Notes under the pieces: generated by a model | Seen by the model: only the letters and a program-made list of their open reading frames with translations | What the model was told of the DNA's origin: nothing | The model's database searches: none | Assembly: GCA_963841435.1 (NCBI GenBank) | Contig: CAWJCS010000003.1 | Coordinates: forward strand, 1,088,001-1,152,000 | Source of the DNA: an uncultured delta proteobacterium | GTDB taxonomy: Bacteria; Myxococcota_A; Polyangia; Polyangiales; Polyangiaceae | Length of the DNA: 64,000 nucleotides | Direction of reading: 5' to 3' | Shown here: positions 3,091-19,798 of the stretch, in pieces | How positions within the stretch are numbered: the stretch's first letter is position 1 | Layout: each line of letters begins with the position of its first letter | Translations under genes and position numbers: made by a program

Positions 3091-3104
3091 CGAGGGTGCC
3101 CGGC

Positions 3105-3740
3105 TCAGTGAGGCCGACGACCGCTGGCGGCCAGGACCCATCCGAGCGCGATCGTTTCCACTTGCAGCGCCTCCGCACCCGCGTGTCCGAGGACGGTGGT
3201 CAGGCGCTCCGGTGTCATTTTCGTGGGGTGGATGTGCTTGCGACTGAAATGTTGAAGCCTGGCTATGGCTTCGAGCGCCGTCGCCTCGATCAGGCGCAGC
3301 GACGTCGAGGCGTAGTTGGGGGTCGTCAAGAACAGCGCCCCGTTGGGCTTGAGAACGCGGAGGATCTCGCGTGTCCAGGCCACGGGTTCCGGGACGTGCT
3401 CGATGACATCCATCGAAACGACCAGATCGAACCGTGCGTCCGGGTACGGGAGCCCTCGTCCGGGGTCGATCACGTCCGCGCCCGCGAGCTTGTGTCCATG
3501 AAGGCTCTTGGCAAGCTCCACGGCCCGCTCGTCGATGTCACAGATCGTGAAACTTCGTCCGCGGCGCTCGAGGCGCTCGAGCTCGAAGAACGGCCCCGAC
3601 CCGACGTTCAAGACATCGGGCCCGGGACTCTGCTCCACGGCGTGCTGTAACGAGCGCACGATAGGACCGTGGTAGAGGTTCCACGGGAACCGCAGCTTCA
3701 GGCTGTGGTTCGAGAAATAGTCCGGCTGAGGGGCGGACAT
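3105..3740 (-). CDS. Class I SAM-dependent methyltransferase
   Basis: VLNVGSG, LPYPDARFDLVVSMDVIEHV and LRVLKPNG motifs. Confidence 0.85.
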   Translation of the reverse strand: MSAPQPDYFSNHSLKLRFPWNLYHGPIVRSLQHAVEQSPGPDVLNVGSGPFFELERLERRGRSFTICDIDERAVELAKSLHGHKLAGADVIDPGRGLPYPDARFDLVVSMDVIEHVPEPVAWTREILRVLKPNGALFLTTPNYASTSLRLIEATALEAIARLQHFSRKHIHPTKMTPERLTTVLGHAGAEALQVETIALGWVLAASGRRPH

Positions 3741-3743
3741 CGC

Positions 3744-4559: not shown

Positions 4560-4733
4560 GGGGCCTAAGTTGCCGCCGTGATTAGCTTACCGGGAGGCGG
4601 ATCGCAACCGGGCCCTCGCCGCCGTGCGTGGCATTTTCACGCCGATTCGCGCGGCTTTTCCTCGCCGGGCATGACCATGGCAAGCTTCGGCCGCCGACGG
4701 ATCGTCGTCGCGTGGGCCAAGAAGAAGCACCGC

Positions 4734-5502
4734 ATGAAAGTCGTCATCCTCGCAGGCGGGCTGGGCAGCCGGCTCTCGGAGCACACAGCCCTCAAGCCGA
4801 AGCCCATGGTCGAGATCGGACAGTATCCGATCTTGTTCCACATCCTGAACATCTACGCGGCGCACGGCTTCGACGATTTCGTGATTGCGTGCGGCTACAA
4901 GGGGGAGGTCATCAAGGAGTACTTCCAGGGCTTCCATCTCAGGCATACCGACTTCACGGTGCGCCTCCGCGACGGCGAGCTCAGCACGCTGAAGAACGAT
5001 GCGCCGCCCTGGACCGTGACGTTGATCGACACGGGGCTCAGCACCATGACGGGGGGCCGCGTTCGCCGGCTCGCGAGCGTGATCGGCGAGGAGACGTTCA
5101 TGGTGACGTACGGTGACGGCGTCGGAAACGTTAACATCACGAAGCTCGTCGCCTTTCACCGCTCCCACGGAAAGGCAGCGACGGTCACCGCCGTCCGGCC
5201 GCCGTCGCGCTTCGGCGGGCTCGTCGTCGAGGGCGGCCGCGTACGCGAATTCACGGAGAAACCTCAGACCGGCGAGGGCTGGATCAACGGCGGATTCTTC
5301 GTGTTCGAGCCGCGCGTCTTTTCGTACCTCGACGGGGACGAGAGCGTGCTCGAGAAGACCCCACTCGAGCGTCTCGCGCGAGACGGCGAGCTCATGGCCT
5401 TCGAGCACCACGATTTCTGGCAGCCGATGGACACGCTGCGCGAAAAGCGCGTGCTCGACGAGCTCTGGGCTTCGGGGAAGGCGCCCTGGAAGATTCTGGT
5501 GA
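4734..5502 (+). CDS. rfbF: Glucose-1-phosphate cytidylyltransferase
   Basis: MKVVILAGGLGSRLSEHT..KPKPMVEIG, TMTGGR, TYGDG, WINGGFFV, FWQPMDTLR, APWK. As sequenced it reads through into rfbG; deleting one T at 5494-5495 restores APWKIW-stop (TGA at 5500-5502). Confidence 0.9.
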
Positions 5503-6584
5503 TGGCGCCGGTGCTCGAGTTCTTCCGCGGCCGGCGCGTGCTCGTGACCGGTCACACCGGCTTCAAGGGCGCCTGGCTCTGTGAGTGGCTCTTGACGCTC
5601 GGCGCCAACGTCGTGGGCTTCGCGCGCCCTCCGGACCAGGAGCCGAGCCTCTTCGCGGCAACCGGGCTCGCGTCACGCCTCGTGTCCGTGATGGGCCATG
5701 TCGAAGATGCCGAGGCCGTGCTGTCGCTTTTCCGGACGCATCGGCCCGAGCTCGTGCTGCACCTCGCAGCGCAAGCGCTCGTCAGGCGCTCGTACCAGTC
5801 GCCGCTCGACACCTACGCAACGAACGTCATGGGCACGGCGCACGTTCTCGAGGCAGCACGGAAGACGCCGTCGGTGAGGAGCGTGGTGATCGTCACCTCC
5901 GACAAGTGCTACGAAAACGTGGGCCTCGAGCGCGGCTACGTCGAGACGGATCCGATGGGCGGCCACGATCCGTACAGCTCGAGCAAGGGCGCCGCCGAAC
6001 TCGTCACGCAGGGCTATCGACGCTCGTTCTTCCACGAGCCAGGCGACGCCGGCGTCGCGTCCGCCCGCGCCGGCAACGTGATCGGGGGCGGCGACTGGTT
6101 GACCGATCGTCTCGTGCCGGATCTGGTCCGCGGGATCACGCGCGGCGAGCCGGTCGTGATCCGGAACCCCGACGCCACCCGGCCCTTTCAGCACGTGCTC
6201 GAACCGCTCTACGGTTACCTCGTCCTCGCGCGCCAAGCTCACGAAAAGCCGCGGCTCTTCTCGCAGGGATACAACTTCGGGCCACGGGACGGCACGCTCC
6301 GCGTCCGCGACCTCGCCGAGCGCTTCGTCGCGACGTTCGGGCGCGGCGACATCGTTCTGCCCCCTCCCGACGACGCCGGCCCCCACGAGGCCCGCACGCT
6401 GAGCCTCGACAGCGCGAAGGCGCACCGCGAGCTCGACTGGACGCCCCGCCTCGACATCGCCGACACCGTTTCGCTCACGGCGAGCTGGTACAAGGCCTAC
6501 TACGACGACCCGCGCAGCGCGCGCGCCACGACCGAGGCGCAGATCGCCGAGTACATGGCGCGGCAGGCGGCAGCGGGAGCATGA
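5502..6584 (+). CDS. rfbG: CDP-glucose 4,6-dehydratase
   Basis: VLVTGHTGFKGAWL, HLAAQALVR, TSDKCY, DPYSSSK, RAGNVIGGGDW, TRPFQHVLEPL. ATG lies in a TGATG overlap. Confidence 0.92.
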   Translation: MAPVLEFFRGRRVLVTGHTGFKGAWLCEWLLTLGANVVGFARPPDQEPSLFAATGLASRLVSVMGHVEDAEAVLSLFRTHRPELVLHLAAQALVRRSYQSPLDTYATNVMGTAHVLEAARKTPSVRSVVIVTSDKCYENVGLERGYVETDPMGGHDPYSSSKGAAELVTQGYRRSFFHEPGDAGVASARAGNVIGGGDWLTDRLVPDLVRGITRGEPVVIRNPDATRPFQHVLEPLYGYLVLARQAHEKPRLFSQGYNFGPRDGTLRVRDLAERFVATFGRGDIVLPPPDDAGPHEARTLSLDSAKAHRELDWTPRLDIADTVSLTASWYKAYYDDPRSARATTEAQIAEYMARQAAAGA

Positions 6585-7504
6585 GCGGAGCCGTCCTCGT
6601 GACGGGCGGCGACGGCTTCATCGGCCGGCGCGTGGTCGCCGCCTTCGCCCGCGACGGCGCGACCGTGCACTGCCTCGTTCGTGCCGGGTCGAAAGGCGGA
6701 AAGGCGCCCCCCGGACACGTCGAGCGTCACGAGCTGCCGAGCGAACCGGGAGCGCTCACGGCGATCGTCGAACGCCTGCGACCCGAGGTCCTGGTGAATC
6801 TCGCGACTTACGGTGTCGCCCCCGACCAGCTCGATCCCCGGCGCATGGTCGAAGCGAACGTCGGGCTCGTCACCGAGCTCATCGACGCCTGCCGCAGCCT
6901 GCGGCCTCGCTTCTTGCAGATCGGCAGCTGTTCGGAATACGCGCGCACCGAGCGGCCACGCCTGATCGACGAGCAGACGCGCTGCGTCCCGACCACGCCG
7001 TACGGCGCCGCCAAGCACGCGGCCACGCTGTGGGGCGGCGCCCTCGCGCGGCGCTTCGAGATCCCGTTCTTCGTGCTCAGGCCGTTCGGTGTGTACGGAC
7101 CGGGCGAGAGCCCACACCGCCTCGTCCCGTACGTTGCGAGCCGCCTTGCCCGGGACCAAACCGCGGCGTTGACGCCCGGCGACCAGGTGCGCGATTTTTC
7201 TTACGTGGACGACGTCGCGAGCGCCATCCTGGCCGCCAGCAAGCGTGAGCTCGAAAGCGGTACCGCCTACAACCTTTGCACGGGCGTCGGCACCTCGGTG
7301 CGAGAGCTCGCCCTCGCAGTGTGCGAGCGCTTGGGCAAGCCGGCGTCGCTGCTCGACTTCGGGGCGCGGCCCTACCGGCCGGGTGACGACCTCTGGATCG
7401 TCGGGGATCCGACCCGGTTCCGCCTAGCCACCGGCTTCATGCCCGAGACACCGCTCGCGCTCGGCATCGAGAGCACCCTCTCGGCAGCGGCCGCTCACCG
7501 ATGA
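6581..7504 (+). CDS. NAD-dependent epimerase/dehydratase (extended SDR; candidate CDP-sugar 4-reductase)
   Basis: VLVTGGDGFIG, GSCSEY, YGAAK (YxxxK), RPFGVYGPGE, RDFSYVDDV. ATGA overlap with rfbG. Confidence 0.85.
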   Translation: MSGAVLVTGGDGFIGRRVVAAFARDGATVHCLVRAGSKGGKAPPGHVERHELPSEPGALTAIVERLRPEVLVNLATYGVAPDQLDPRRMVEANVGLVTELIDACRSLRPRFLQIGSCSEYARTERPRLIDEQTRCVPTTPYGAAKHAATLWGGALARRFEIPFFVLRPFGVYGPGESPHRLVPYVASRLARDQTAALTPGDQVRDFSYVDDVASAILAASKRELESGTAYNLCTGVGTSVRELALAVCERLGKPASLLDFGARPYRPGDDLWIVGDPTRFRLATGFMPETPLALGIESTLSAAAAHR

Positions 7505-7556
7505 GGCCGCGCTTGCCTCGGGACCGCACATCGAGCATGGCTTCGGGGAAAGCAGG

Positions 7557-8168
7557 ATGATGAGCCTGTTCGACCGCATTCTCGGCAACCCGTGGGTGTA
7601 CGAGTACGTGCGGCCGCTCGCGGCGGGCGGGCTCGACTACGCCCACGCCTATCGCCGCCTCAGGTGCGGCCCTTCGGCGCACGTGCTCGACCTCGGCTGC
7701 GGCACGGGCGACGCCCTGCGCTACCTCGATACCTACGAGGCTTACCTCGGGATCGACACCGACGAGCGCGCGATCCGCTACGCAGCCTCACGCTGGCAGG
7801 GTCGCGCGGGCACGCGCTTCGAGTGCCGCCTCTGCACGCCCGACGACGTGCGGGCGTTTGCGCCCACCCACGCGGCGCTGATTGGGCTCTTGCACCACCT
7901 CGACGACGGTGACGCGGTGTCGATGCTGAAGATGCTTCGCGAGTCACCACGTCTCGAGCGCGCCGTGACGCTCGATACGGTGTACCTCCGCAGGCACCCC
8001 TACAACAACCTGCTCACGCGGCTCGACCGTGGGCGCTTCGGTCGCTCCGAGCCCGCCTACGTCGCACTGGCCGAGCGGGCGGGGCTCCGGGTGGTCGAGC
8101 ACTACATCGTGAAGAGCCACCCGACGCGCGGGCTCGTGAAGTTCTGCGTGCTCGTGCTCGAGCCCTGA
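7557..8168 (+). CDS. Class I SAM-dependent methyltransferase
   Basis: VLDLGCGTG, YLGID and GLLHHLDD motifs. Confidence 0.85.
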   Translation: MMSLFDRILGNPWVYEYVRPLAAGGLDYAHAYRRLRCGPSAHVLDLGCGTGDALRYLDTYEAYLGIDTDERAIRYAASRWQGRAGTRFECRLCTPDDVRAFAPTHAALIGLLHHLDDGDAVSMLKMLRESPRLERAVTLDTVYLRRHPYNNLLTRLDRGRFGRSEPAYVALAERAGLRVVEHYIVKSHPTRGLVKFCVLVLEP

Positions 8169-8212
8169 GCCCTGTTGCCGCGGCGGGGCGCGCGGTGCAC
8201 CATGCCGGTCCC

Positions 8213-8833
8213 ATGAACCGTGGAGCCGGCTGGGCCTTGGCGCTCTCGCTCATGCTTGCGAGCTGCGAGAAAAAGCCCTTGGAGATCCGCCTGATGCCGG
8301 GGCCGGATCTCAGCGGCTGGCGCCGTGTCCCGATCCAAGCGCTCGCCGAGAAACCAGTGTGGAACGTCAGCGACAAGATGTTGCTCGTCAACGGCGTGGG
8401 AGCGAAAGAGATGCTCCTGTTCGAGCAAGAGCTCGCCGACGGAGTCGTCCACGTCGAATGGCGGTTCCGCAAGAGCACCGACCCGGCCGCCGTGTACAAC
8501 GGTGGCATCTACGTTCGCACGGCGCTCGATGGCAAGGTGTACGTCCAGGCGCAGGTGGCGCACGCCGAGAAGGCGCCCACCACGGGCGACCTGATTGCCC
8601 AGGTGCCGGGCGTCACAGAGCGCGTCAACGTGTACCAGAAAGCGGCGAGCGTCGAGCACTCAGTCGGCGAGTGGAACACGACCGACATCATGATGCGTGG
8701 ACGCAACATCGGGGTCACGGTCAACGGCACGCCGACGGTCACCTGGACCGACTGCCCGATGCTGAGCGGCCACGTCGGCATCCAGGCCGAAGGCGCTTTC
8801 GTCGAGGTGCGAGCGCTGAGCTACCGCCCGTGA
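8213..8833 (+). CDS. DUF1080 / 3-keto-disaccharide hydrolase-like lipoprotein
   Basis: Lipobox LMLASC, DLSGW, HVEWRF, NGGIYVR, GEWNT, VTVNG, GHVGIQAEG. Confidence 0.75.
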   Translation: MNRGAGWALALSLMLASCEKKPLEIRLMPGPDLSGWRRVPIQALAEKPVWNVSDKMLLVNGVGAKEMLLFEQELADGVVHVEWRFRKSTDPAAVYNGGIYVRTALDGKVYVQAQVAHAEKAPTTGDLIAQVPGVTERVNVYQKAASVEHSVGEWNTTDIMMRGRNIGVTVNGTPTVTWTDCPMLSGHVGIQAEGAFVEVRALSYRP

Positions 8834-8896: not shown

Positions 8897-9211
8897 ATGC
8901 CACCGCTCGACTTCGTCCGAGTCCCTCGCCGCCGGCTGTTCATCCTGGTGCCACCCGCGCTCACGGTGCTCCTTGCCGCCGCCTGCGAGAAACTGCCGGC
9001 CTCGTGCGGCGACGTGAGCGGTCTGACCGAAGACGAAGCCGCCCTGCGAAAGACGATGGGCTACTCCGATCTGGCACCGAGCGCCGACAAGCGCTGTGTG
9101 ACCTGCCGGCACTACGTCGCCGCGTCGAGCCAGTCGAGCTGCGGCAGCTGCAAGCTCCTCAAAGGCCCGATTCACCCGAACGGCTACTGCCAAGCGTACA
9201 CGTCACTCTGA
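8897..9211 (+). CDS. High-potential iron-sulfur protein (HiPIP) with a Tat/lipoprotein-type signal
   Basis: RRRLF twin-arginine motif, LAAAC lipobox, and the HiPIP cysteine pattern CVTCRHY...CKLLKGPIHPNGYCQAY. Confidence 0.8.
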   Translation: MPPLDFVRVPRRRLFILVPPALTVLLAAACEKLPASCGDVSGLTEDEAALRKTMGYSDLAPSADKRCVTCRHYVAASSQSSCGSCKLLKGPIHPNGYCQAYTSL

Positions 9212-11419
9212 CGCCGGCGGCGCCGCGACGACCGCAGGCGCGCGCACGGGGACGCCCAGATTGCGCGAAAGCATGTCCTGGAGCGCGACGAGCGTGTAGG
9301 GCTTGGGGAGCACGTCATCGAACGGTGTGCCCGTCATCACGAAGTCCGTCCCGCTCGACAGCACGACACGAAGGTCGGGCCGAATGGCGTGGATCGCGCG
9401 GGCAAAGTCGGCGCCCGTCATGCTGGGCATGGACATGTCGGTGACGACCATGCAAAACCGCGCCGGATCGCGCTCGAGCAGCGAAAGCGCTTCCGCGGGT
9501 GAGGTCAGCGGCAGCGCCCTGTGACCGAGGTGAATGAGGAGACGCACGAGCGTGAAGCCGATCATCGGCTCGTCGTCGACGACCAGAACTTCGCCGCTCG
9601 GCTGCGGGCGCGATGCCGACACCGGGGCCGGTCGCGGGTCCTCGGCCGTGCTCGGAACTGCCGCCGCGGGCGCCTCGCTCACCGCAGGCGCGGGGCTCGC
9701 GGCCGGGATCAGCACGCGGAAGGTCGTCCCTGCGCCAGTCGCGGAACGGACGCGGAGGGCTCCGCCGTGCTCGAGGACGATGCCATGCACGACGCTGAGC
9801 CCGAGGCCCGTCCCTTCGCCGCGCGGCTTGGTCGTGAAGAAGGGGTCGAACATGCGTGCCTGCGTGGGAGCGTCCATGCCGGCACCGTCGTCCTCGACGC
9901 AGAGCTCGATGTAGCTGCCGGGGGCGAGACCTTCGTCTTCGACGCCGTCCGCCACTCGACGCACGGTGAAGCGGATGCGACCGGGACGGTCGCCGATCGC
10001 CTGCGAGGCGTTGGTGCCAAGGTTCATGAGCACCTGGTGGATCTGCGCGACGCTGCCCGTAAAGCGCGGGCGCCCCTCCGAGACGAGCTCGAGGGCATGG
10101 CGCGCGGGTAGTGCCGCACGCAACAGCGCCACCACCTCCTCGACGAGCTCGACGGCGTCGACGGACTCGACGACCGCGGGATCCCGGCGTGAAAACGTCA
10201 GAATGCGCCGCACAACGTCGCGGGCCCGGGTCGCTCCGGCACGCAGCCCGTCCACCGATTCGCGCGCCTCGGGCGGCAGCGACCGTTGGCCGTGCAAGAG
10301 CTCGACGTGACCGAGCATCGCAGTGAGCAAATTGTTGAAGTCGTGAGCAATGCCGCCCGCGAGCGTGCCCAGGGACTCGAGACGCTGCGAATGGGAGAGG
10401 CGCTCCTCGAGCTCCCGGCTGCGAGCCTCGGCGGCCAGCAGCCGCTCGCTGACCTCGAGCATGACGCTCTGGCGCAGAGCAGCAGCAATCACGACGCCGA
10501 CCATGCACAGCGTGACCGCGAGCCGCACCTGAGGGAAGAGCTCGCTCGAGAGCAACATGGCGACCGCAGCCGTCACGACGAGCGCGAGCGGAACGAGCCG
10601 CGAGCCGATGCCGTAACCGCGACGCAAGGCGCCCACCACTTCGACCTCGCCCGGATCGAACGACGCGACACCCGCGCCGAGCAGCAGGGCGCCGTACGAA
10701 AACGCGTAGTTTAGGAGCGTCGCATCGTCGAGCTCGCCGTTCAGCGTCGCGAGGTTCCATTCCATCCACAAGAGGCCCTGGCCGAGGACGGCCGCGAACA
10801 GCAAGAAAAGCCCAGGTTTGGGGGGTACCATGAGCTCGAGCGCCACCACGGCGATGAGCGCCGTCACGGTCAAGAGCGCCGTCGGGTAGGCCACGAGCAC
10901 GGCGAGCGTCGGCGCGTCGAAGTCCCCACGGCGCGGGAGATAGGCAGCGAGCGTCAGCGCGAGCATCGCGAGCCCAAGACCGACGCCATCGAGGCCCACG
11001 GCAATGCGGCGCGAGCGCCGCTGGTCGCGCGTGAGGCAGACCACGCCGAGTCCCAAAAGGGGACCGACCGCAACGAAGGCGAGATCGGAGGGACCCGGAA
11101 ATGGATTCCACCCGATCGCGACCTGGACGTCCCAGAGCACCTGGCCGAAGAACAGAGCGAACAGCGCTCGCGTGAACCACGTGCGGGCTCGGCAGAGAGC
11201 ACCTCGCGCGCGCCGGCGCGAGAGCCAAGCGAGCGCGAATGCGGACGCGTACGACAGCGTCCAGTGGGCGTTGTCCCAGAAACGGACGGCGGTGGTGTCC
11301 TCTGCGACCCGCGTCGCCGCGACCGCGAACGTCGTCGCCGCGAACCCGAAAAGCAGCGTCACGCGCTCGGCGTGGGACCAGCTCGAAGCGGCATCACGGG
11401 GGAGAACGTGCGTAGACAC
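9203..11419 (-). CDS. Membrane-bound hybrid sensor histidine kinase / response regulator
   Basis: About 9-10 TM segments at the N-terminus; GGIAHDFNNLL H-box, NLGTNA, DDGAGM, FDPFFTTK, GTGLGL; receiver domain VVDDE...TDMSMP...KPY. Confidence 0.92.
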   Translation of the reverse strand: MSTHVLPRDAASSWSHAERVTLLFGFAATTFAVAATRVAEDTTAVRFWDNAHWTLSYASAFALAWLSRRRARGALCRARTWFTRALFALFFGQVLWDVQVAIGWNPFPGPSDLAFVAVGPLLGLGVVCLTRDQRRSRRIAVGLDGVGLGLAMLALTLAAYLPRRGDFDAPTLAVLVAYPTALLTVTALIAVVALELMVPPKPGLFLLFAAVLGQGLLWMEWNLATLNGELDDATLLNYAFSYGALLLGAGVASFDPGEVEVVGALRRGYGIGSRLVPLALVVTAAVAMLLSSELFPQVRLAVTLCMVGVVIAAALRQSVMLEVSERLLAAEARSRELEERLSHSQRLESLGTLAGGIAHDFNNLLTAMLGHVELLHGQRSLPPEARESVDGLRAGATRARDVVRRILTFSRRDPAVVESVDAVELVEEVVALLRAALPARHALELVSEGRPRFTGSVAQIHQVLMNLGTNASQAIGDRPGRIRFTVRRVADGVEDEGLAPGSYIELCVEDDGAGMDAPTQARMFDPFFTTKPRGEGTGLGLSVVHGIVLEHGGALRVRSATGAGTTFRVLIPAASPAPAVSEAPAAAVPSTAEDPRPAPVSASRPQPSGEVLVVDDEPMIGFTLVRLLIHLGHRALPLTSPAEALSLLERDPARFCMVVTDMSMPSMTGADFARAIHAIRPDLRVVLSSGTDFVMTGTPFDDVLPKPYTLVALQDMLSRNLGVPVRAPAVVAAPPASE

Positions 11420-11591
11420 GCCTTGTCATTCCCAACTCGAGCGCTTGGCGCTCCAACACTCAGGATACACCTTCCGCGACGCGCGCTCACGCGGATCCGA
11501 GTTCCGCGCGGCTGGAGGCGGTGTTTTCATCGGGCCTGGCGCGCGACGACACGCCTCGCGCCACGCGACCTTTCGCTGTCGTCGGTCGCCG

Positions 11592-11750
11592 TCACGCAAA
11601 ACCGCGGCGTTCGAGGCCGGCCAGGATGCGTTCGAAGCGGGGCTCGAGTCGATGCAGAAGGAGCACCTTGTCGCGAGCGGCGCGGCCAATCGTGCGGCGT
11701 TCGTCGTCCGAAGCCTGCAGGCGCTCCGCCTTGCTCACGAGATCGGCGCG
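11592..11750 (-). pseudogene. Remnant of a glycosyltransferase C-terminal helix region
   Basis: DLVSKAERLQASDDERRTIGRAARDKVLLLHRLEPRFERIL resembles the GT-B C-terminal signature (DERxxIxxxARxxVLxxH); no N-terminal part is present. Confidence 0.4.
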
Positions 11751-12044
11751 GCCGCCGAACCGGGCCCCACTGGTGCGCCAACCGTCATCGCCATGGACCG
11801 TCATCCCGAGCGGCGGGAGCGCTGCAACGCGGCCCGCCCTGAGCCCATGGGAGCGCGCCGTTGAGCCAATCGGCGACCTCGGAGGGCGAGGCGCCCCGGG
11901 GCCTGGCGATGGTGGTCGGCCACCGGGCGTCTCGATGCCGCGAGCCACCGCGCGCTCGGCGCGCTCGGCCCAACCGGCACCATATGTCCCCTCACCGCCT
12001 GCCAGCGACGGCAGAGGCCGACTCGATGGTAGATTGTCGCAAGC

Positions 12045-12653
12045 ATGGCCGAGCTCGAGCGACGGATCCGAGACCTGGTCGCTGGCTCCGACCTCGAGGA
12101 GCGCCTGAGCCTCGTCCCGCCCTCCGCAATGCTACGCGGGTTGTATTTTCGCAACACCGTCGCGGTGCTGCGAAACGCGGGAGCACTGGCAAGCTACGAG
12201 GCCCTCTATTCGGAGAGTCACTCGGCCGTGCGCTGGTACCCGCTCTCGGACTTCCTCGAACGCGCCGCGGTCGCAGCGGCGCTGCTCAAGGGCCCGGACG
12301 GGATCCACGAAGGGTTACGCGAGATCGGGCGCCGCAACGTGCTCGCTTTTTCCGAGAGCCTCATCGGTCGGACGCTGCTGCGCATCCTGCCGAACGATCC
12401 CGTCAGCCTGCTCAAACAGGCGTGCGCTGGGCGGCGGCAAAGCTGCCGCTATGGGCGCTGGGAGGTCACGTTTCCGGAGCCGGGCAAGGCGGTGATGGCG
12501 ATGTTCGAGGAGTATCTCTGGATCGAGTCGAACGTGCTCGGTGCGGCCGAGGGCACGTTCGCGGCGGTCGGTCGTGACGTGCACGTGACAGTGGAGCTGG
12601 ACTCGAAATTCAAGGGGCGCCACATCCTCACGTGGTCTGACGAGGGGCGATGA
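12045..12653 (+). CDS. DUF2378 (TIGR02265-like) myxobacterial protein
   Basis: LEERLSLVPPSAMLRGLYF, WYPLSDFL, LREIGRR..F.ESLIGRTL, YGRWEV and LGAAEG pattern, recalled for this family. Confidence 0.7.
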   Translation: MAELERRIRDLVAGSDLEERLSLVPPSAMLRGLYFRNTVAVLRNAGALASYEALYSESHSAVRWYPLSDFLERAAVAAALLKGPDGIHEGLREIGRRNVLAFSESLIGRTLLRILPNDPVSLLKQACAGRRQSCRYGRWEVTFPEPGKAVMAMFEEYLWIESNVLGAAEGTFAAVGRDVHVTVELDSKFKGRHILTWSDEGR

Positions 12654-12752
12654 CATCGCCAGCGGGCAACCCAATCGTGGTATGAGCGGCGACGAGCACG
12701 TCGGGGGTCACTTAACATTGCTGTCCGCCCGACCGTCGAGAGCCTGCGCCAC

Positions 12753-14645
12753 GTGCTTGATCGTAAAAAACTGGCTTTTGCCGTAGCAAGCGACGCGCCG
12801 CCGGCGCGCTCGAGCCCCCCGGACGAAACGCTCGGGGCTGGTGCGTCCCGCCGCGAATCAGGCATCGTCGAACGCGGGCGGGCCGACGCCGACGGGCTGA
12901 CCGTGCCAAAGGGCGCGGTCATCGACTCGACGCTCAGCCCCGAATCAGCGGCGGCGCGCATCGTCAACGCGCTCGTGGCGCGCGGTGTGGAGACGTACTT
13001 CGGGATCCCGGGCGGGCCCATCTGTCCGCTCGTCGAGGCGCTACGGTTGCACCCCGCTGCGCGCTTCATCGAGTCGCGCCACGAAAGTCACGCGGCATTC
13101 GCGGCAGCAGCGTACTTTCGGGCGAGCGGACGCGTCGCGGGGGTCGTCGTCACGGCGGGACCGGGGGTCACGAACGCCGTCACGGGCGTCGCGTCCGCGT
13201 TCCTCGAACGCATCCCGTTGCTGGTCCTCGCGGGCGACGTGGCCTGGGCCACCCACGGCGGGCGGCTCGCGCAGGATTCGGGACCGGAAGGCATCGACAT
13301 CGAGCAGCTACTCGGCTCGGTAACGCGCGCCCGTGTGCGGGTTACGAACGGCCGCAGCGCCGTGAGTCAGGTCCTCTGTGCCCTGGATGCGGCGACGAGC
13401 CCGCTGTCCCCCGGTCCGGCCCTGCTCGTCCTCCCCATCGATCGCGCCACGGAAATGGCGCCCGTCTGTCGGATCATCCCTTCGACCCCGCCCCTCGCCG
13501 GCGTCCCGGATCTCGAACCGGTGATGGCGACCGCGCGGCTGCTCGCGGAAGCGGAGCGCCCCCTCTTGGTTCTCGGTGGCGCCTGCCTCTCGCACGCGGG
13601 CTGGGTTCGCCAGCTCGTCGACATGCTCAACGTCCCCTTCGTCACGACGCCGCGGGCCAAGGGTGTCGTGAGCGAAGAACACCCCCGCTCTCTGCGCAAC
13701 GGCGGCATGGCCGCGTCGCTCTGGGCCCGGCGCTACACCGCGAAGCCCGTCGACGCGGCGCTCGTGCTCGGTAGCGACCTCGACGATACCTCCGTCGGCG
13801 CGACGCCCTACGTGGGCGCGGGCGGGCGCCTCATTCACGTCGACCTCGACCCGCGGGTCTTCAACCGAAACTTGCCGACGACGCTCGGCATCACGGCAGA
13901 CCTCGCGACGTTCGCGCGGGAGCTCTACCAGGTGGTATCGGGGCTCGGCTCGAAGAACCCGCGCACGAGCTCACTGATGCGAGAGGCGCGCGCGGTGTCA
14001 CCCTATGACGAAGCAGAGTTCGAGACCGACGGCGGCAGTCTGATCCCGCCGCATCGTGCCATCGCCGACCTCGCCCGAGCCGTCGAGGACGACGCGCGTT
14101 TCGTCACCGACATCGGCGAGCACATGCTGTTCGCTCTGCACTACCTCACGGCGCGCGGTCCGCTCGATTTCAACATCCAGCTCAATCTCGGCAGCATGGG
14201 CAGCGGCATCGCGGGCGCGCTGGGCCTCGCGCTCGCCGATCCCACGCGCCAGGTCGTGTGCATCGCGGGTGACGGCGGCATGCAGATGTCGGGCATGGAG
14301 ATCCTCACCTGCAAAAAGCTCCGGCTGCCGGTGCTCTACGCCGTGTTCAACGACTCCCGCTACAACATGGTGCACCACGGCATGCGGCAGATCTTCGGGC
14401 AGACGGGCGACCACGGCATGCCCCAGGTCGATTTCGCGGCGTGGGCGGCGTCCATGGGCGTCCCCGCTCGGACCATCCACGCCGCCGGGGAGATCGATCG
14501 CGAGCTCTTGGCCGAGCTCTCGCGTCACGGAGGCCCGGTCCTGCTCGACATCCGCATCGACCCCGAGGTGCGCCTGCGAGCCGGCGGTCGCGTCGAGGCC
14601 CTGCAGCACATGTCCATGCTGTCGAAAGCCGCGGGGAGCGCGTGA
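12753..14645 (+). CDS. Thiamine-diphosphate-dependent enzyme (acetolactate synthase / acyloin synthase-like); start codon uncertain
   Basis: FGIPGG, ESRHE (catalytic Glu), TAGPGVTN, GSMG, and the ThDP motif GDGGMQM...FNDSRY. Confidence 0.9.
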   Translation: MLDRKKLAFAVASDAPPARSSPPDETLGAGASRRESGIVERGRADADGLTVPKGAVIDSTLSPESAAARIVNALVARGVETYFGIPGGPICPLVEALRLHPAARFIESRHESHAAFAAAAYFRASGRVAGVVVTAGPGVTNAVTGVASAFLERIPLLVLAGDVAWATHGGRLAQDSGPEGIDIEQLLGSVTRARVRVTNGRSAVSQVLCALDAATSPLSPGPALLVLPIDRATEMAPVCRIIPSTPPLAGVPDLEPVMATARLLAEAERPLLVLGGACLSHAGWVRQLVDMLNVPFVTTPRAKGVVSEEHPRSLRNGGMAASLWARRYTAKPVDAALVLGSDLDDTSVGATPYVGAGGRLIHVDLDPRVFNRNLPTTLGITADLATFARELYQVVSGLGSKNPRTSSLMREARAVSPYDEAEFETDGGSLIPPHRAIADLARAVEDDARFVTDIGEHMLFALHYLTARGPLDFNIQLNLGSMGSGIAGALGLALADPTRQVVCIAGDGGMQMSGMEILTCKKLRLPVLYAVFNDSRYNMVHHGMRQIFGQTGDHGMPQVDFAAWAASMGVPARTIHAAGEIDRELLAELSRHGGPVLLDIRIDPEVRLRAGGRVEALQHMSMLSKAAGSA

Positions 14646-15724
14646 TGAACGCCGCCATCGCGGGGATCGGCGCCTGGTACCCGGAGCGGGTGCGCACGAA
14701 CGACGAGTGGCCCGCCGACTTCGCCGCGGCCTCCCGCAGCGCCGGAGACCGGCTTTTCAACGACATTCCGCGGTCGCCCGACGACGCGCTCCGGGTCACG
14801 GACCGCTACCTCGCGGCGGAAGCGCATGATCCCTTCCTCGGCGCGAAGGAGCGTCGCGTCGCCGACGACGCGACGAGCTCGGTCGATGCCGAGGTGCTCG
14901 CCGCGCGACGCGCGCTCGACGATGCCGGCGTTTCCGTCCGGGAGATCGACGTGGTCATCTCGTACTCGGTCGTTCCCGATCGCGTGACGCCGGCGTCGGC
15001 GTGCGCCGTCGCGAACCGCCTGGGAGTGCCGGGCGCGCTCGCATTCTCGATGGATGCTGCCTGCGCGACGGCGCTCGTCCAGATCCAGAACGCCAAAGCG
15101 CTCGTCGAGTCCGGCCAGGCGAAAGCGGTCCTGCTCACGCAATCGCACCTCTTGCTCCGCACCTTTCCCATGCTGCACCCGGCGGCTCCGGGGCTCGGCG
15201 ACGCTGCAACGGCGCTCGTCGTGAAGCGCGACGGTCGCTTCCCCATCCTCGGCGTTCTGGGTCGAACTCATGGCGAGTACTACCCGGCCGTGACCTGGGT
15301 GCGCGGCTCTACGCCCGAGGAGGACACGCCCTGGTGGCTCGCCGGGGGGCCGCTACGCGTAGGCAGCCGCGATCGAGAGCAAGCCAAGGTGCTGCAGAGA
15401 GACACCGTAGCCTACGGGGTCGAGACGCTGCGGGAGGTCGCCCGGGAGGCCCGCGTCGACCTCGAGAGGATCGACGTGCTCGCGAGCGTCCAGCCCCGGG
15501 GCTGGGTCCCCGTGGCCATGGCCGAGGTGCTGGGGCTCGACCCGGGGGTCGTCCCGAGCGTTTACGAGACCCGCGGCCACCTCGGTGCGTGCGGCCCGAT
15601 CGCGAACTTGGAGCTCTGGTACCGAACCCGGCGGACCGCGGGGTCTCGCGTCGGGGCCCTGTATGCTCAGGGCGCCGGTTTCACGCGGGCCGCCGTTCTT
15701 CTCGACCTCGCCTCAAGCGAGTGA
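14645..15724 (+). CDS. 3-oxoacyl-ACP synthase III-like (FabH-fold) protein with a non-canonical active site
   Basis: AAIAGIGAWYPERVRTNDEW, DAACA (Cys), GDAATA. The HQAN position reads VQPR and the GNT position reads GHL. TGATG coupling to the ThDP gene. Confidence 0.85.
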   Translation: MNAAIAGIGAWYPERVRTNDEWPADFAAASRSAGDRLFNDIPRSPDDALRVTDRYLAAEAHDPFLGAKERRVADDATSSVDAEVLAARRALDDAGVSVREIDVVISYSVVPDRVTPASACAVANRLGVPGALAFSMDAACATALVQIQNAKALVESGQAKAVLLTQSHLLLRTFPMLHPAAPGLGDAATALVVKRDGRFPILGVLGRTHGEYYPAVTWVRGSTPEEDTPWWLAGGPLRVGSRDREQAKVLQRDTVAYGVETLREVAREARVDLERIDVLASVQPRGWVPVAMAEVLGLDPGVVPSVYETRGHLGACGPIANLELWYRTRRTAGSRVGALYAQGAGFTRAAVLLDLASSE

Positions 15725-15797
15725 CGACGAAACGGGGCCAGGGCGCTAACCTGGGCGCCCCGCGCTCCTTCCGAGCCGCGCGAGCATTCGTCGAGCC

Positions 15798-17354
15798 ATG
15801 GTCGCCCCGATCGACACCTTCGTGTACTTCACGACCGAGGAGGCCTTCCAAAGGCTCGGCGCGCCGTTCACGTTGCGTAGCGAGCTCGGCGGCGGACGCG
15901 TGGAGACGCGCTTGCTCGAGCGCGAGGTACCGGCCGGCGTAGCGCTGGCGCGGTCCACCGTCGGGTCCTCGCCACTCGGTGTCGTGGCGACGTCGGAACC
16001 GCAGGCTCTCGAGGCGATCGGGGCGGGCGCCGACGAGGCCGTCGTGCTGGCGGAGCCGCATCCCGCGGCCATCACGGCGTTCGTCGATCGCGTGCGCGTG
16101 CGTGCGTGGAACCGTCGGGAACGCGAGCAGCGAACGCAGGACTTGAGCCAGGCCGAACGCCTCGCGACGCTCGGAACGCTCGTCGCCGGAGTCGGGCACG
16201 AGCTCAACAATTCCCTCGCGATGATTGCGCTCGGCTTCGACCTCTTGCGCGACGCCCTCTTGCCCGACCTCAACGTGATCTGGACGGCACGCGGGCGCAT
16301 TCTCGGCTCGGGCGAGCTGACGCCAGACGCCGCGAAGGAGCTCGCCGGCGCGCTGCGCGGCGACGGCGTCGCCGTCACCCAGATCCTGGACGATCTCAGC
16401 GTCTCGACCAAAGCCGTGACGCAGGTCGTGCGCGATCTCCGGACGTTCGGCGGAGGCAACGTCGTCGAGGGGCCGTCCCTCTTCCAGCCTCGCGAGGTGA
16501 TTCAGCAGGCCTTGCGCCTGGTGCGCCGCGAGCTGCCCCCGAAGACCGTGCTCGAAGAGGACTACGACGACGACCTTCCCACGCTCTACCTGCCGCGAAA
16601 CCGACTGGCACAGGTGCTCACGAACCTGCTCGTGAACGCCGGGCAGGCGCTGCGCGAGGTCACCCGCGAGATCCATCGCGTGCGCGTCGGAGCGCGCCGG
16701 GACGAGCAATCGCTCGCCATCTCCGTCACGGACACGGGCCCGGGCATCGACGACGAAGCCCTGGAACGCATATTCGATCCCTTCTTCACGACCAAGCGCG
16801 AGGGCCAGGGTCTCGGGCTTTCGATCTCTCGCTCGATCATCCAGCAGATGGGCGGCGACCTCGTCGCGTCGTTGACGTTGGGCGAAGGAGCGAGCTTCGT
16901 GTGCTTCCTGCCACTGCCGAACGATGCCGATCTGCAGAAGGCAAAGCATTCGCTTCGGGGCACGTGGCTTGGGGGCCCGAGCGAAGCACGTCGGTCGGTG
17001 CTCATCATCGACGACGACGAGCGTGTGCTACGGGCCACGGCGCGTGCCCTGAGCGAGCAGTGCAAGGTGCTCGTGGCTCGCGACGGCGAAGAGGCACGCC
17101 AACTCTTGAAATCCGGCTCCCACGTTAACGCGATCGTGATGGAGCTCGTCTTGCCGGAGCTCGACGCCATCGCCTTTTGCGACTGGCTCGTCACGTTCGA
17201 CGCCGACCTCGCCCGCCGCGTCGTGATCGCCACCGCCGCCCACGAGCGCCCCCAGCACCGCGCCTTCCTGGAGGAGCGGGCAGCGCTCGTGCTGCACAAG
17301 CCCTTCCACCGCGAGGACTTGCTGGCCGCCGTCGCGCGCGTCACCGGCGGCTGA
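15798..17354 (+). CDS. Cytoplasmic hybrid histidine kinase with a degenerate N-terminal receiver and a C-terminal pseudo-receiver
   Basis: GVGHELNN, NLLVNA, DTGPGI, FDPFFTTK, GLGLS. C-terminal IIDDD...VMELVLP (Asp to Glu)...KPF. N-terminal ALEAIGAGADE. No TM segment. Confidence 0.85.
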   Translation: MVAPIDTFVYFTTEEAFQRLGAPFTLRSELGGGRVETRLLEREVPAGVALARSTVGSSPLGVVATSEPQALEAIGAGADEAVVLAEPHPAAITAFVDRVRVRAWNRREREQRTQDLSQAERLATLGTLVAGVGHELNNSLAMIALGFDLLRDALLPDLNVIWTARGRILGSGELTPDAAKELAGALRGDGVAVTQILDDLSVSTKAVTQVVRDLRTFGGGNVVEGPSLFQPREVIQQALRLVRRELPPKTVLEEDYDDDLPTLYLPRNRLAQVLTNLLVNAGQALREVTREIHRVRVGARRDEQSLAISVTDTGPGIDDEALERIFDPFFTTKREGQGLGLSISRSIIQQMGGDLVASLTLGEGASFVCFLPLPNDADLQKAKHSLRGTWLGGPSEARRSVLIIDDDERVLRATARALSEQCKVLVARDGEEARQLLKSGSHVNAIVMELVLPELDAIAFCDWLVTFDADLARRVVIATAAHERPQHRAFLEERAALVLHKPFHREDLLAAVARVTGG

Positions 17355-17397
17355 CGACGCCGACGATGCCGCGTGCGGCACCCGCGTCCACCCGAAC

Positions 17398-18082
17398 CTA
17401 CTTCGCGCTCGGTGCGCACGCTTGGCGGGCGCGACCCTCTTGCAACGAGCCCGGCGACAGCCGAGAAAGCTCGCTCTGGGCCTCGGCGGTGCGACCCATG
17501 CCGCAGAGCGCATGGATCTTCGCGGCGACGCGCTCTTGCACGAGAGTCCCATGGGGAAACTCTCGCTCGTGCTCGGCGAGCAGGCGAAGCGCTCCCGCGA
17601 AGCGACCGGCGTGGAGCTCCGTCTCCGCACGCGACAGGATCGCGACTTCCTCGGCAAGCCGATTCGGACGGGCGGCGCGGAGCGACGGTGCGCTCGGGCT
17701 CGGGAGCGGCAGGAGACGGAGCGTGCTCCGGGAGCGCCTGCGCGGCCGGAGCCGGCGGCTCCTCGACGACCGGCGCGACCGGTGGGGGCGCCGTCGCGAC
17801 GCTCGGCTGCGCGGCCGCGGGCACGGGCCGCGTCGGCCGTTCGCGCGTTCGCTCGAACAGCACGGCACCGCCCACGGCGAGGCCGACGACGATCAGCGAA
17901 ATCGTGGACCACCCGACGCCGGCGCTCGGCGCGGCCGGGGCCGGTGCCCCCGTGGGGAGGTCGCCGGCGGCGATGCGCCCGCTGAGCTCACGGAACACGC
18001 GCTCGCGATCCGCGACCGTCGGACGCAGTCCCTTTCGACCCGCTCTGACGAGCGCTGCTGCCTCGGGACCGAGCTCGTTCAC
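17398..18082 (-). CDS. Putative anti-sigma factor (N-terminal helix, one TM, Pro-rich linker, TPR-like C-terminus) with an apparent +1 frameshift at about 17663
   Basis: N-terminal half lies in ORF 16586..18082 and the C-terminal half (RLAEEVAILSRAE...ALRLLAEHEREFPHGTLVQER..ALC) in ORF 17398..17868. Removing one base from GATTC at 17661-17665 gives PSDRLAEE. Coupled to the ECF sigma gene. Confidence 0.65.
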
Positions 18083-18687
18083 GGGCGACCTCCGGCGTCA
18101 CGGCTGGCGCTGCGCGCGAGCTCCTCCCCGAAGGCGATCCTTGCGGCCCGCAGTCGCGAGTAAGCGGTATTGAGCGGGATCTCGAGCGCCTCCGCAATCT
18201 CGGGAACGGTCATCTCCTCCAGCTCGGCCAGCATGAAGACCTCCCGCTTCGGAAAGTCGATCTTCTCGAGCAGGGCGAACAGCACCTTGATCTCGTCGCT
18301 TTGCTCCGTGAGATCGTGTGGGGTCGGCGGCGCACGGTGTCGCACCCCTGCTTCGACCGCCAAGGCCTCACCGCCGGCGTGCCTGCTGCGCTGCGACCGA
18401 TGGTGATCGCTCACGGTGCGCCGGACGACGCCGTAGATCCAGCTTCGGAGCGAGCTCGGTTGCCTGAGCGTTTCGACCTTCGCGTGGATCACCAAGAATA
18501 TCTCCTGAACGACATCATCCATCGACGACGCGCTCACACCGAGGCGCCGTGCCGAGGCCCAAACGAAATCGAAGTGCTGTTGGTAGATGGCTTCGAACGT
18601 TGGGACTTCTTCGATTGCCACGACCCGGGCGTGCTCCACCTGGTTCGGCGGCCCCATGGCACGAGCCGCAGCGCTCCGTCCTAACAT
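18079..18687 (-). CDS. ECF RNA polymerase sigma factor
   Basis: FEAIYQQHFDFVW, DDVVQEIFL, SLRSWIYGV, REVFMLAELEEMTVPEIAEALEIPLNTAYSRLR. Confidence 0.92.
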   Translation of the reverse strand: MLGRSAAARAMGPPNQVEHARVVAIEEVPTFEAIYQQHFDFVWASARRLGVSASSMDDVVQEIFLVIHAKVETLRQPSSLRSWIYGVVRRTVSDHHRSQRSRHAGGEALAVEAGVRHRAPPTPHDLTEQSDEIKVLFALLEKIDFPKREVFMLAELEEMTVPEIAEALEIPLNTAYSRLRAARIAFGEELARSASRDAGGRP

Positions 18688-18727
18688 CGTCGGTCCCAAA
18701 GGCAGTGGCGCCACGCGCGGGTGTCCG

Positions 18728-19798
18728 TCAAAAAATCCACTCCGAGGCGAGCCCGAACGACCCCCAGACCCGCCCAAGTTGACGAATTTCCCCGAAGTCT
18801 TCGATGATCAGGCGCGGCCGGGAGGTTTCCAATCCGACCGAAGCCGTGCCGACCAAGGCGAGCCAATCGCGTAGGTAAACGTGCGACACCGCACCGCTGC
18901 CGACCACGACCGAAACCCGTTGCGCCGAGCGGGCAGCGACCGTGGCTCCGACGCCACGAGCAGTAAAGCGATCGAGCCCCAAGCCGACGCACGGCCCGAT
19001 CTCGAGCCACGACGCTTGCCACTGACGACACGCCGAGAGCTCCGCCGTCATACGGCCGACGTGCGCGCCAACATCGGGGACCTCGCGCGACCAAAGGGTT
19101 TCCGCCTTGAAGATTCGACCCAGCGCGACGAAGCGCCAAGCCTCGAAGCGCACGCCGAGACCCGCGCCGAGCCCGAACCCGGCCTTCGGCAGCGGACCCA
19201 CGTTGACCGTTCCGAACGGTGCGCGAAGGATGGCCTGGAGCCTGCCCCCATCGGGTACTTCACGCTTCGTCTTGGTGTCGGCACGCTCGTTCTTGCTCGG
19301 AACGACGTCGGGCGCCGTCGCGGCGCGCGGAGGCTCCTCGGGGGCGACGGTTTCGTCCTTCCCCGGCTCGTTGGCATGCTCCGAGGAGGATGCGGCCTCC
19401 GCTTCCTTCGTTGACGCCCCTTTCCCCGGCTCGCTCCGAAGCAACAAGCCGAGGGCAACGGCAGCAGCCCCTGCGAGGTCCGCGCACGAGTCGGAATCGA
19501 TCACGCGCGTTCGAACGCTGCTCCCGTCGCGCACGGTCAGCGTGAGACGATAGCGATCGTCTTTCTTTACCACCTGCCCCTCGGCATGAAGCTCGCCTGC
19601 GGCCCGCAGCGACTCGCCGGCGAGCGAGCGAATGCGCTCACGCACGGCATCCTGCTGGGGACAGACCGGCGGCGCGTCCCAGGCAAGGTCCAGTGGCCCC
19701 TGGGCCATGACGCGCGCAGGCAGAAGCACCGCCGCGAGCCCCCACGCGACGATGCCGAGCAAGCGCCCGTCGCGGCTGCGTCGGTCAGGGAGCGGCAC
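18728..19798 (-). CDS. Exported protein with an N-terminal Cys-containing domain and a predicted C-terminal outer-membrane beta-barrel
   Basis: Signal peptide, WDAPPVCP...SCADLAGAAAV, then alternating beta-strands ending in ASEWIF (terminal Phe). Confidence 0.55.
   Translation of the reverse strand: MPLPDRRSRDGRLLGIVAWGLAAVLLPARVMAQGPLDLAWDAPPVCPQQDAVRERIRSLAGESLRAAGELHAEGQVVKKDDRYRLTLTVRDGSSVRTRVIDSDSCADLAGAAAVALGLLLRSEPGKGASTKEAEAASSSEHANEPGKDETVAPEEPPRAATAPDVVPSKNERADTKTKREVPDGGRLQAILRAPFGTVNVGPLPKAGFGLGAGLGVRFEAWRFVALGRIFKAETLWSREVPDVGAHVGRMTAELSACRQWQASWLEIGPCVGLGLDRFTARGVGATVAARSAQRVSVVVGSGAVSHVYLRDWLALVGTASVGLETSRPRLIIEDFGEIRQLGRVWGSFGLASEWIF

Follow-up and report, generated by a model that had tools for sequence, protein, structure and literature searches.

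Why do the genes for two biosynthetic enzymes stand between a DUF2378-family gene and a histidine kinase gene in an uncultured Polyangiaceae bacterium? The question is raised by a cassette of four genes (positions 12045–17354, approximately 70% G+C) in a stretch of 64,000 nt from assembly GCA_963841435.1 (contig CAWJCS010000003.1, positions 1,088,001–1,152,000), which is hereafter named the window. The cassette encodes a DUF2378/TIGR02265 protein, a thiamine diphosphate (ThDP)-dependent carboligase-type enzyme, an enzyme resembling ketoacyl synthase III (KAS III) and a soluble histidine kinase. Our answer, to which we give a probability of about 45%, is that the two enzymes produce a lipophilic molecule derived from an acyloin, and that this molecule is read by an accessory sensor and kinase resembling H-NOX and HnoK. 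The first-pass annotation of this DNA had described four co-oriented genes, with the two enzyme genes translationally coupled through a TGATG overlap. All four open reading frames (ORFs) were indeed found on the plus strand with domain matches that fit, and the overlap was confirmed in the sequence (Table 1).

Linkage of the four genes in related genomes

The linkage was sampled using a motif-based scan with one genome per species, which yielded 62 loci, all from metagenome-assembled genomes labelled Polyangiaceae, Polyangiales, Sandaracinaceae, Myxococcales and similar. By tblastn, the four genes were complete in 46 of the 62 loci and in 39 of the 45 informative ones, i.e. those with at least 2.9 kb upstream and at least 2.5 kb downstream of the KAS III match. 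Six informative loci were incomplete: the enzyme pair only was found in four (L023, L026, L029 and L047), DUF2378 and KAS III in L078, and DUF2378, the kinase and a KAS III remnant in L082. The remaining 17 loci end at contig edges and were not counted, and their contents are consistent with the four-gene pattern. The first-pass annotation had made its proposal depend on the linkage to DUF2378 and the kinase being conserved in other genomes; it is kept, and it is kept despite rearrangements.

These rearrangements were analysed in the 43 loci with complete ORF calls, in which five gene orders were counted (D, DUF2378; T, ThDP enzyme; K, KAS III-like enzyme; H, kinase): D>T>K>H> (20 loci), T>K>H<D< (13), T>K>H>D< (six), T>K>D>H> (three) and H<T<D>K> (one). 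Two extra orders were seen, D<T>K>H> in L019 and K<T<D>H> in L110. On the KAS III tree, a quick tree with support from the Shimodaira–Hasegawa-like approximate likelihood ratio test (SH-aLRT) only, the orders fall into clades, with two origins of T>K>D>H>, and the loci without the sensor pair are nested among complete ones, suggesting that the gene set survived several rearrangements and that there were at least three losses. A distant branch from other families (L092, L094, L095 and L097) also has the order D>T>K>H>, confirmed by Pfam for L092, at identities to the window proteins of only 30–32% for KAS III, 34–35% for the ThDP enzyme and 27–29% for DUF2378. In L092, which belongs to a complete 10.3-Mb genome (G437), PilZ-domain proteins are encoded on either side of the module (4807–5439 and 11356–11916).

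The co-occurrence was also seen at the level of genomes. A strong KAS III orthologue was present in nine of 41 relatives, and all nine of these had the DUF2378 subfamily at E ≤ 1e-60; in a tenth relative (G024, 82% complete), a 6-kb contig ends with the genes for DUF2378 and the kinase. Sampling 401 genomes of the class gave 83 with a KAS III-like match at E ≤ 1e-30 and eight with one of at least 418 bits. No fifth gene recurred within 6 kb, the next commonest flanking family being present in five of 44 loci. The linkage of the four genes is far beyond chance, and we regard it as highly probable that they form one functional module, which is shared by many uncultured myxobacteria of soil and water.

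Table 1. Positions in the window of the cassette genes and of neighbouring features
Feature	Position	Strand	Evidence or remarks
DUF2378/TIGR02265 protein, 202 aa	12045–12653	+	Pfam 51.3 bits (cut-off 22.2), NCBIfam 60.3 bits (cut-off 25)
ThDP-dependent carboligase-type enzyme, longest ORF 630 aa	12753–14645	+	TPP_enzyme_N/M/C, each above its cut-off
KAS III-like enzyme, 359 aa	14645–15724	+	ACP_syn_III 32.9 bits, ACP_syn_III_C 29.3 bits (weak matches)
Soluble histidine kinase, 518 aa	15798–17354	+	HATPase_c 83 bits, Response_reg 55.5 bits, HisKA only 17.6 bits
TGATG stop/start overlap of the ThDP and KAS III-like genes	14643–14647	+	Direct sequence reading; translational coupling
Sugar-nucleotide and methyltransferase gene cluster	1–8833		Three S-adenosylmethionine (SAM) methyltransferases, 3-keto-disaccharide hydrolase
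ORF within this cluster	4569–6584		Unites nucleotidyl-transferase and epimerase/dehydratase domains
Second hybrid kinase	9203–11419	−	Divergent from the cassette
156-aa ORF	17398–17868	−	No family match; adjoins the next feature
Extracytoplasmic function (ECF) sigma factor	18079–18777	−

The two enzymes

The ThDP enzyme belongs to the three-domain type of pyruvate oxidase and acetohydroxyacid synthase (AHAS), with TPP_enzyme_N, M and C matches of 108.7, 89 and 109.9 bits respectively, and its translation contains a GDG motif with ND approximately 27 residues further on, as in a ThDP-binding motif. The true start of the gene is uncertain because similarity to homologues begins only near residue 60 of the ORF (approximately nt 12930). 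The top NCBIfam names of the two enzymes are acetolactate synthase and FabH, and the pair might on this account belong to primary metabolism, as an acetolactate synthase isozyme and a FabH paralogue that lie beside a kinase by chance. However, the equivalog scores were far below the cut-offs. The ThDP enzyme reached 263.6 bits with TIGR00118 (AHAS large subunit; cut-off 538.35) and stayed under the cut-offs of all other AHAS equivalogs and of every other named ThDP family in NCBIfam, and the KAS III-like protein reached 92.9 bits with TIGR00747 (FabH/KAS III; cut-off 292.1) and 94.9 bits with NF006829 (cut-off 249). A true AHAS (743.7 bits) is encoded on another contig of the same genome (G000:C6:27648–29312), and the genome's own FabH, with a Cys, His (PHQAN) and Asn (GNTS) triad, also lies elsewhere. 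In a ThDP enzyme tree that was rooted on AHAS by choice and has long branches, the KAS-linked enzymes were separate from the genome's AHAS and from a second paralogue. The closest solved relatives were BbmA and CsmA (E 4e-71), before AHAS (2e-56). The literature searched on BbmA and CsmA gave no function for them, only the assignment of 8RPH to a paper on JanthE. The first-pass annotation had left room for a housekeeping AHAS at this position; the scores, the AHAS elsewhere and the tree set the enzyme apart from it. The patchy spread of the KAS III orthologue among relatives and across the class, together with the residue changes described below, also speaks against a place in primary metabolism, a reading which we consider extremely improbable and already contradicted.

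The KAS III-like enzyme differs from FabH at the active site. In an alignment with the genome's own FabH, Cys140 (nt 15062–15064) is kept, the His position is occupied by Val282 and the Asn position by His312. Among the close orthologues, Cys140 and His312 are invariant and the FabH His position is Val or Ala; Ser167-His168, His178, Trp230-Trp231 and Pro284-Arg285 are further invariant residues. Across the KAS III-like proteins of all branches, the Cys alone is common, and the second and third triad positions differ by branch. Since Val and His312 replace the FabH His and Asn, the residues for decarboxylative condensation are missing, and an acyl-transfer or non-decarboxylative role therefore fits. 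We predict from these residues a non-decarboxylating acyl-transfer or condensing enzyme. The junction with the ThDP gene is tight, with a 1- or 4-nt overlap in 39 of 51 related loci and a distance of at most 9 nt in 49 of 51 according to our own ORF calls. In L056 (8176–9417), the ThDP gene is apparently truncated (a 413-aa ORF whose match spans residues 64–418 only) and 583 nt separate it from the KAS III gene; the remaining three genes look intact.

A pair of a ThDP and a KAS III-like enzyme is by itself not new for myxobacteria. The first-pass annotation set the pair beside CybE/CybF of cyanobacterin and NzsH/NzsJ of bacterial carbazoles, to either of which it may be homologous. Lone cybE/cybF homologue pairs without the rest of the cyb operon are described for Plesiocystis pacifica and Enhygromyxa salina and are proposed to serve deoxyenhygrolide synthesis, in the accessible text of PMC8777810 without genetic proof. 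CybE joins two 2-oxo acids and CybF adds a cinnamoyl-type coenzyme A (CoA) thioester through O-acylation, a Morita–Baylis–Hillman-type step and a hydride shift (PMC12395478); the same scheme is given in PMC13288894. The word 'kinase' is absent from the accessible texts of PMC8777810 and PMC13288894. The cassette enzymes are likened to CybE/CybF by gene layout, not by sequence orthology: the ThDP gene stands directly before the KAS III-like gene, a myxobacterial pair can stand without the rest of the cyb operon (PMC8777810), and the CybE/CybF chemistry requires just two 2-oxo acids and an acyl-CoA (PMC12395478). They differ in that the scanned flanks of the cassette hold no ammonia-lyase or CoA-ligase gene and no recurrent fifth gene in 44 loci, and in that the closest solved relatives of its ThDP enzyme are BbmA and CsmA. 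We regard a furanolide-like product as doubtful, since no genes for cinnamoyl-CoA supply are linked to the pair.

Elsewhere the enzyme pair keeps other company. In a third branch (L101, L111, L100 and L102), it follows a response regulator of HTH_17-receiver type and precedes a single large hybrid kinase as well as one or two receiver-kinases, and in L023 it adjoins a XylR-type regulator (see below). These contexts of response regulators, multi-kinase arrays and a XylR-type regulator support a general link of the enzyme family to signalling. No signalling neighbours were found by tblastn for the pairs in L093, L098, L099 and L103. The large downstream kinase of the third branch has two ATPase domains in L101 (5670–13237) and L111 (3232–11486). 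In L100, a cytochrome P450 and an O-methyltransferase are encoded between the ThDP ORF and the KAS III-like gene; this 708-aa ORF (11297–13420, minus strand) has a receiver (residues 17–127) before the three ThDP domains, and is either a receiver–ThDP fusion or two genes read together. L020 (6500–15712, genome G028) contains two different ThDP–KAS III pairs on opposite strands of one contig, approximately 3.6 kb apart, and neither DUF2378 nor the kinase was found there by tblastn.

The DUF2378 protein and the kinase

The first-pass annotation had suggested DUF2378 as a possible ligand-binding partner, and its predicted fold lends support to this idea. An AlphaFold2 model from a 32-sequence alignment had a predicted local distance difference test score (pLDDT) of 94.4 and a predicted template modelling score of 0.90. 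In a Foldseek search of the PDB, all 43 matches at E ≤ 0.001 were H-NOX domains or soluble guanylate cyclase β subunits (best E 4.2e-7, template modelling (TM) scores 0.67–0.75), with TRAPP Bet3/TPC6 next. VIA-align placed residues 30–202 of the model on residues 1–185 of the H-NOX chain 4u99_A (Z 16.7, rmsd 2.5 over 167 residues), leaving a 29-residue N-terminal extension. Lower Z values were obtained for TRAPP subunits (approximately 10), the VirS ligand-binding domain (9.5), BcsD (9.5), PoxR (8.3), the DmpR–phenol structure (8.0) and a V4R protein (8.0). The modelled protein thus has a predicted H-NOX fold, and the matches to H-NOX, VirS, PoxR, DmpR and V4R suggest a small-molecule-binding domain family whose nearest member is H-NOX.

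In sequence, however, the DUF2378 protein departs from canonical H-NOX. Pfam HNOB was matched by no member of the 32-sequence alignment even at E ≤ 10, whereas all 32 matched the DUF2378 model, and the YxSxR haem motif was present in one sequence only. His88 is the sole near-invariant His (31 of 32 sequences) and, as estimated from the aligned ranges, seemingly lies outside the equivalent of the proximal helix. The conserved polar residues include Asp16, Arg20, Arg31, Gln125, Arg130/131, Glu156, Tyr157 and Ser162. A PDB sequence search with the DUF2378 profile returned only kinesin matches at chance level (E approximately 0.5). The family was present in three of 121 sampled genomes of the phylum, and the cassette gene is its single copy in the 7.8-Mb genome of the window. 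The N-terminal extension carries an 'H/Y-C-D' motif, with Cys at position 15 in 28 of 32 orthologues and His or Tyr at position 14 in 30 of 32; the window protein departs from it with Gly-Ser at residues 14–15 (nt 12084–12089).

The kinase is composed of a receiver-like domain (residues approximately 1–88), a dimerization and histidine phosphotransfer domain with His134 (nt 16197–16199), a catalytic and ATP-binding domain and a C-terminal receiver. All 34 orthologues keep His134 and the N, G1, F and G2 boxes. Pfam and the fold search gave no sensor domain of PAS, GAF or membrane type and no recognised ligand-binding domain. The model of residues 1–120 (pLDDT 92.4) shows four β–α units followed by a long helix, and its best Foldseek matches were all receivers (CheY and PhoP; CheY with E 1.4e-3 and TM 0.55), none at E ≤ 0.001. 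No conserved acidic acceptor is evident in this N-terminus, in which Pro59, Gly77, Ala78, Asp79 and Arg106 are invariant. A sequence relationship of the N-terminus with the protein's own C-terminal receiver was not significant (hhalign probability 3.2%). The label 'hybrid kinase' of the first-pass annotation is doubtful, and so is a phosphorelay role: a C-terminal receiver is present, and its acceptor position is Glu in the window protein (Glu449, nt 17142–17144) and in 26 of 34 orthologues, with Asp in the other eight. Such a substitution is phosphomimetic-like, and it may leave the receiver constitutively set or serving as a structural part.

DUF2378 and the kinase keep together as a pair. 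The enzymes of G030 are on one contig, and DUF2378>kinase> are together on another. In L082 (7451–10038), DUF2378 (199 aa) and the kinase (503 aa) are open and adjacent with a 58-residue KAS III remnant between them and without a ThDP gene, apparently the result of a deletion after which the sensor pair stands 'solo'. These two loci also bear on the idea that DUF2378 is a biosynthetic helper, i.e. a carrier, chaperone or cyclase for a hydrophobic intermediate, with the kinase as an unrelated neighbour or general regulator. TRAPP Bet3 binds lipid, members of the superfamily hold lipids or hydrophobic ligands without signalling, and the Bet3 match (Z approximately 10) would agree with such a role, as would the position of DUF2378 directly upstream of the ThDP gene in the commonest gene order (20 of 43 loci). 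However, it is the kinase, not the enzymes, that DUF2378 stays with when the set is split (G030) and after enzyme loss (L082); 16 of 43 loci have it just upstream of the kinase gene and on the same strand, and enzyme pairs exist without it. A helper role is thus quite improbable.

The layout of a stand-alone H-NOX-fold protein of approximately 190 aa beside a soluble kinase without a sensor domain, kept together through rearrangements, is that of known H-NOX/kinase systems, such as HnoX/HnoK in Shewanella and Vibrio, H-NOX/HqsK and HahK, in which H-NOX proteins control the HnoK and HqsK kinases via protein–protein contact. We predicted a complex of DUF2378 with kinase residues 1–385, both given as alignments. 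This one prediction gave an ipSAE of 0.50 (runs 0.52, 0.50 and 0.46; best of three controls 0.00), which counts as weak support on a mark passed by 116 of 157 solved complexes and two of 215 mismatched pairs, with 18 of the 157 and both mismatches at ≤0.60. Between runs, 75% or more of the contacts agreed, and the pLDDT of the partner was 86 or higher. The prediction adds slightly to the case for DUF2378 as a ligand-binding partner. Apparent DUF2378–kinase fusion ORFs in L055 and L068 were rejected, as an in-frame stop separates the genes. Taking fold and pairing together, DUF2378 probably binds a ligand and serves the kinase as an accessory sensor, after the manner of H-NOX/HnoK.

The loci that lack the sensor pair offer a further view of its role. 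A whole-genome search found no DUF2378 in the genomes of L023 and L026 and only a weak one in that of L047; the enzyme pairs without DUF2378 and kinase suggest that the product has a use without this receptor. The contig of L024 stops just past the KAS III gene, and a DUF2378 orthologue lies elsewhere in its genome. In L023, an activator with XylR_N, V4R, sigma-54 AAA+ and HTH_8 domains (5821–7650, minus strand) is divergent from the ThDP gene and abuts it, and may functionally replace the DUF2378–kinase pair, which is absent from this genome. XylR, DmpR and PoxR share a structural superfamily with DUF2378, as given by the Z values above; they differ in that the sensor domain is fused to an AAA+ activator and has no significant sequence similarity to DUF2378. 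A sequence link of DUF2378 to the XylR_N/V4R domain of the L023 regulator was not significant (hhalign probability 0.65%). The intergenic region of L023 showed no sigma-54 promoter, with 30 matches counted and 23.3 expected. The enzyme pair of L029 is met by a convergent NtrC-type regulator and a convergent HAMP kinase, and in L047 a Ser/Thr kinase follows the pair.

Possible function and genomic surroundings

We propose that the coupled ThDP and Cys-only KAS III-like enzymes would use primary 2-oxo acids and an acyl thioester to make a small, lipophilic compound derived from an acyloin, through chemistry resembling the CybE/CybF assembly of a furanolide or butenolide. The cytoplasmic DUF2378 protein, with its H-NOX fold, would bind a small molecule, most likely the product of the enzymes, and would set the autophosphorylation of the kinase by protein–protein contact, as H-NOX does for HnoK and HqsK; the output would then pass to an unlinked response regulator. 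That the ligand is the product of the neighbouring enzymes is a serious possibility at slightly less than even odds, because the linkage persists, the genes lie head to tail, the sensor pair outlives enzyme loss and a XylR/V4R-type regulator takes its place in L023. We infer the product chemistry, the identity of product and ligand, and the direction of control; the molecule may act between cells or inside a single one. Unlike H-NOX/HnoK, the DUF2378–kinase pair is linked to two biosynthetic enzymes, suggesting an organic ligand rather than nitric oxide or O2, and the protein itself differs from H-NOX in the HNOB, YxSxR and N-terminal features described above. In CqsA/CqsS and LqsA/LqsS, too, a gene for the synthase of a small hydroxyketone-type signal adjoins that for the kinase that reads the signal; these systems have a single pyridoxal phosphate-dependent synthase and a membrane receptor kinase. 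The cassette differs in having a ThDP and a KAS III-like enzyme, a soluble kinase and a separate binding protein. No aminotransferase-type domain was found in it, and the N-terminus of its kinase is soluble and receiver-like, unlike that of CqsS. More specifically, DUF2378 as a haem-free H-NOX-fold protein might be the cytoplasmic receptor of an acyloin- or furanolide-type autoinducer from the two enzymes and might gate a kinase without its own sensor, making up a Polyangia signalling system; this fuller version is tentative, and we would put it somewhat behind the general one.

Several observations weigh against a molecule made by the enzymes and read by DUF2378 and the kinase. Within 6 kb in 44 loci, no conserved gene encodes a response regulator, an exporter or an enzyme of acyl-CoA supply. 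The enzymes stand without the sensor pair in four of 45 informative loci. With His88 in nearly all sequences, DUF2378 may yet bind haem. Two distant DUF2378 paralogues (in G190 and G134) are not beside kinases, so the kinase partnership is not a general trait of DUF2378. No fused longer DUF2378 protein was found at E ≤ 1e-5 among 7999 candidates of 385–2000 aa, which is weak evidence. Finally, complex predictions that pass in the band observed here are wrong more often than they are right, save where the guess was already likely; since the genomic pairing makes it fairly likely, we take the pass as modest support. A distant paralogue in L119 (3292–6722, minus strand) has no adjoining kinase; the gene directly downstream of it encodes 983 aa with acetoacetate-decarboxylase-like and amine-oxidase-like domains.

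The cassette could instead be a regulated natural-product cluster, in which the enzymes make an antibacterial or allelopathic butenolide or furanolide and the DUF2378–kinase pair senses an unrelated cue, such as a gas or the redox state via haem, or a prey-derived molecule, and switches production. Myxobacterial furanolides are reported as antibiotics, e.g. enhygrolide A with a minimum inhibitory concentration of 4 µg/mL (PMC12395478), and the lone cybE/cybF pairs have been assigned, as a proposal, to deoxyenhygrolides (PMC8777810). The P450 and O-methyltransferase of L100 are like those of biosynthetic clusters, enzyme pairs without a sensor exist, and the closest fold of DUF2378 is a gas sensor. 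In addition, the prey signal 2-heptyl-4-quinolone (HHQ) induces a DUF2378 gene in two other myxobacteria, in a report whose accessible text calls the family functionless (PMC9257966). However, the haem motif and HNOB counts argue against a haem-based cue, the module has no conserved companion gene for DNA-binding output, export or resistance, the sensor pair outlasts the deletion of the enzymes in L082, and a head-to-tail arrangement of sensor, enzymes and kinase with short gaps suits a loop better than a one-way switch. We hold such a cluster to be the main rival, though rather unlikely, and the signalling and regulated-antibiotic readings are not mutually exclusive; they can overlap, as in autoregulators that also control antibiotic production. 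For a furanolide, signalling has a parallel in nostoclide, a cell-density-dependent mediator in Nostoc punctiforme (PMC9324945).

The literature searched on DUF2378/TIGR02265 and on ThDP, KAS III, acyloin and butenolide terms gave no tie of such enzymes to DUF2378 or a kinase, and, as far as these searches reach, the conserved union of the enzyme pair with an H-NOX-fold DUF2378 and a kinase without a sensor domain is undescribed. DUF2378 has no assigned function, and the papers listed for it offer just a remark on expression. If the signalling reading is true, DUF2378 would gain its first function, and an H-NOX fold would have been put to use for an organic ligand that the bacterium makes itself. 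To date, the furanolides of myxobacteria have been viewed as antibiotics, and the gene pairs assigned to them come without genetic proof in the accessible text of PMC8777810. The portable four-gene unit offers a testable route to a non-gas ligand for the H-NOX fold and, within a large group that is mostly uncultured, to a new signal molecule together with its receptor. The combination of the enzyme pair, DUF2378 and the kinase also gives a genome-mining handle for related systems.

As the first-pass annotation had noted, the neighbours of the cassette encode no ilvN/ilvC, acyl carrier protein, CoA-ligase, ammonia-lyase or exporter domain among the ORFs scanned in the flanks within 1–27812; these ORFs are methyltransferases, nucleoside diphosphate (NDP)-sugar enzymes, a 3-keto-disaccharide hydrolase, sigma factors, an AraC-type regulator and similar. 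The second hybrid kinase that it placed upstream does exist as a divergent gene, but its membership of the unit was not borne out, as its sole matches in the 62 related loci lay at the coordinates of the downstream kinase, at 25–35% identity. This kinase, the ECF sigma factor and the 156-aa ORF were all rejected as parts of the module, being not conserved. No Rfam match at E ≤ 0.1 was obtained across 11300–18200, no promoter-like site was found in the cassette region, and sigma-54 promoter scores upstream of the module genes were not above those within coding sequence. The terminator scan returned five terminator-like sites against 2.5 expected, every one inside a gene. L055 is the only related locus having both the ECF sigma factor and the 156-aa ORF, with the homologues side by side (14668–15998), and the two genes (17398–18777 in the window) may encode a sigma/anti-sigma pair unrelated to the module.

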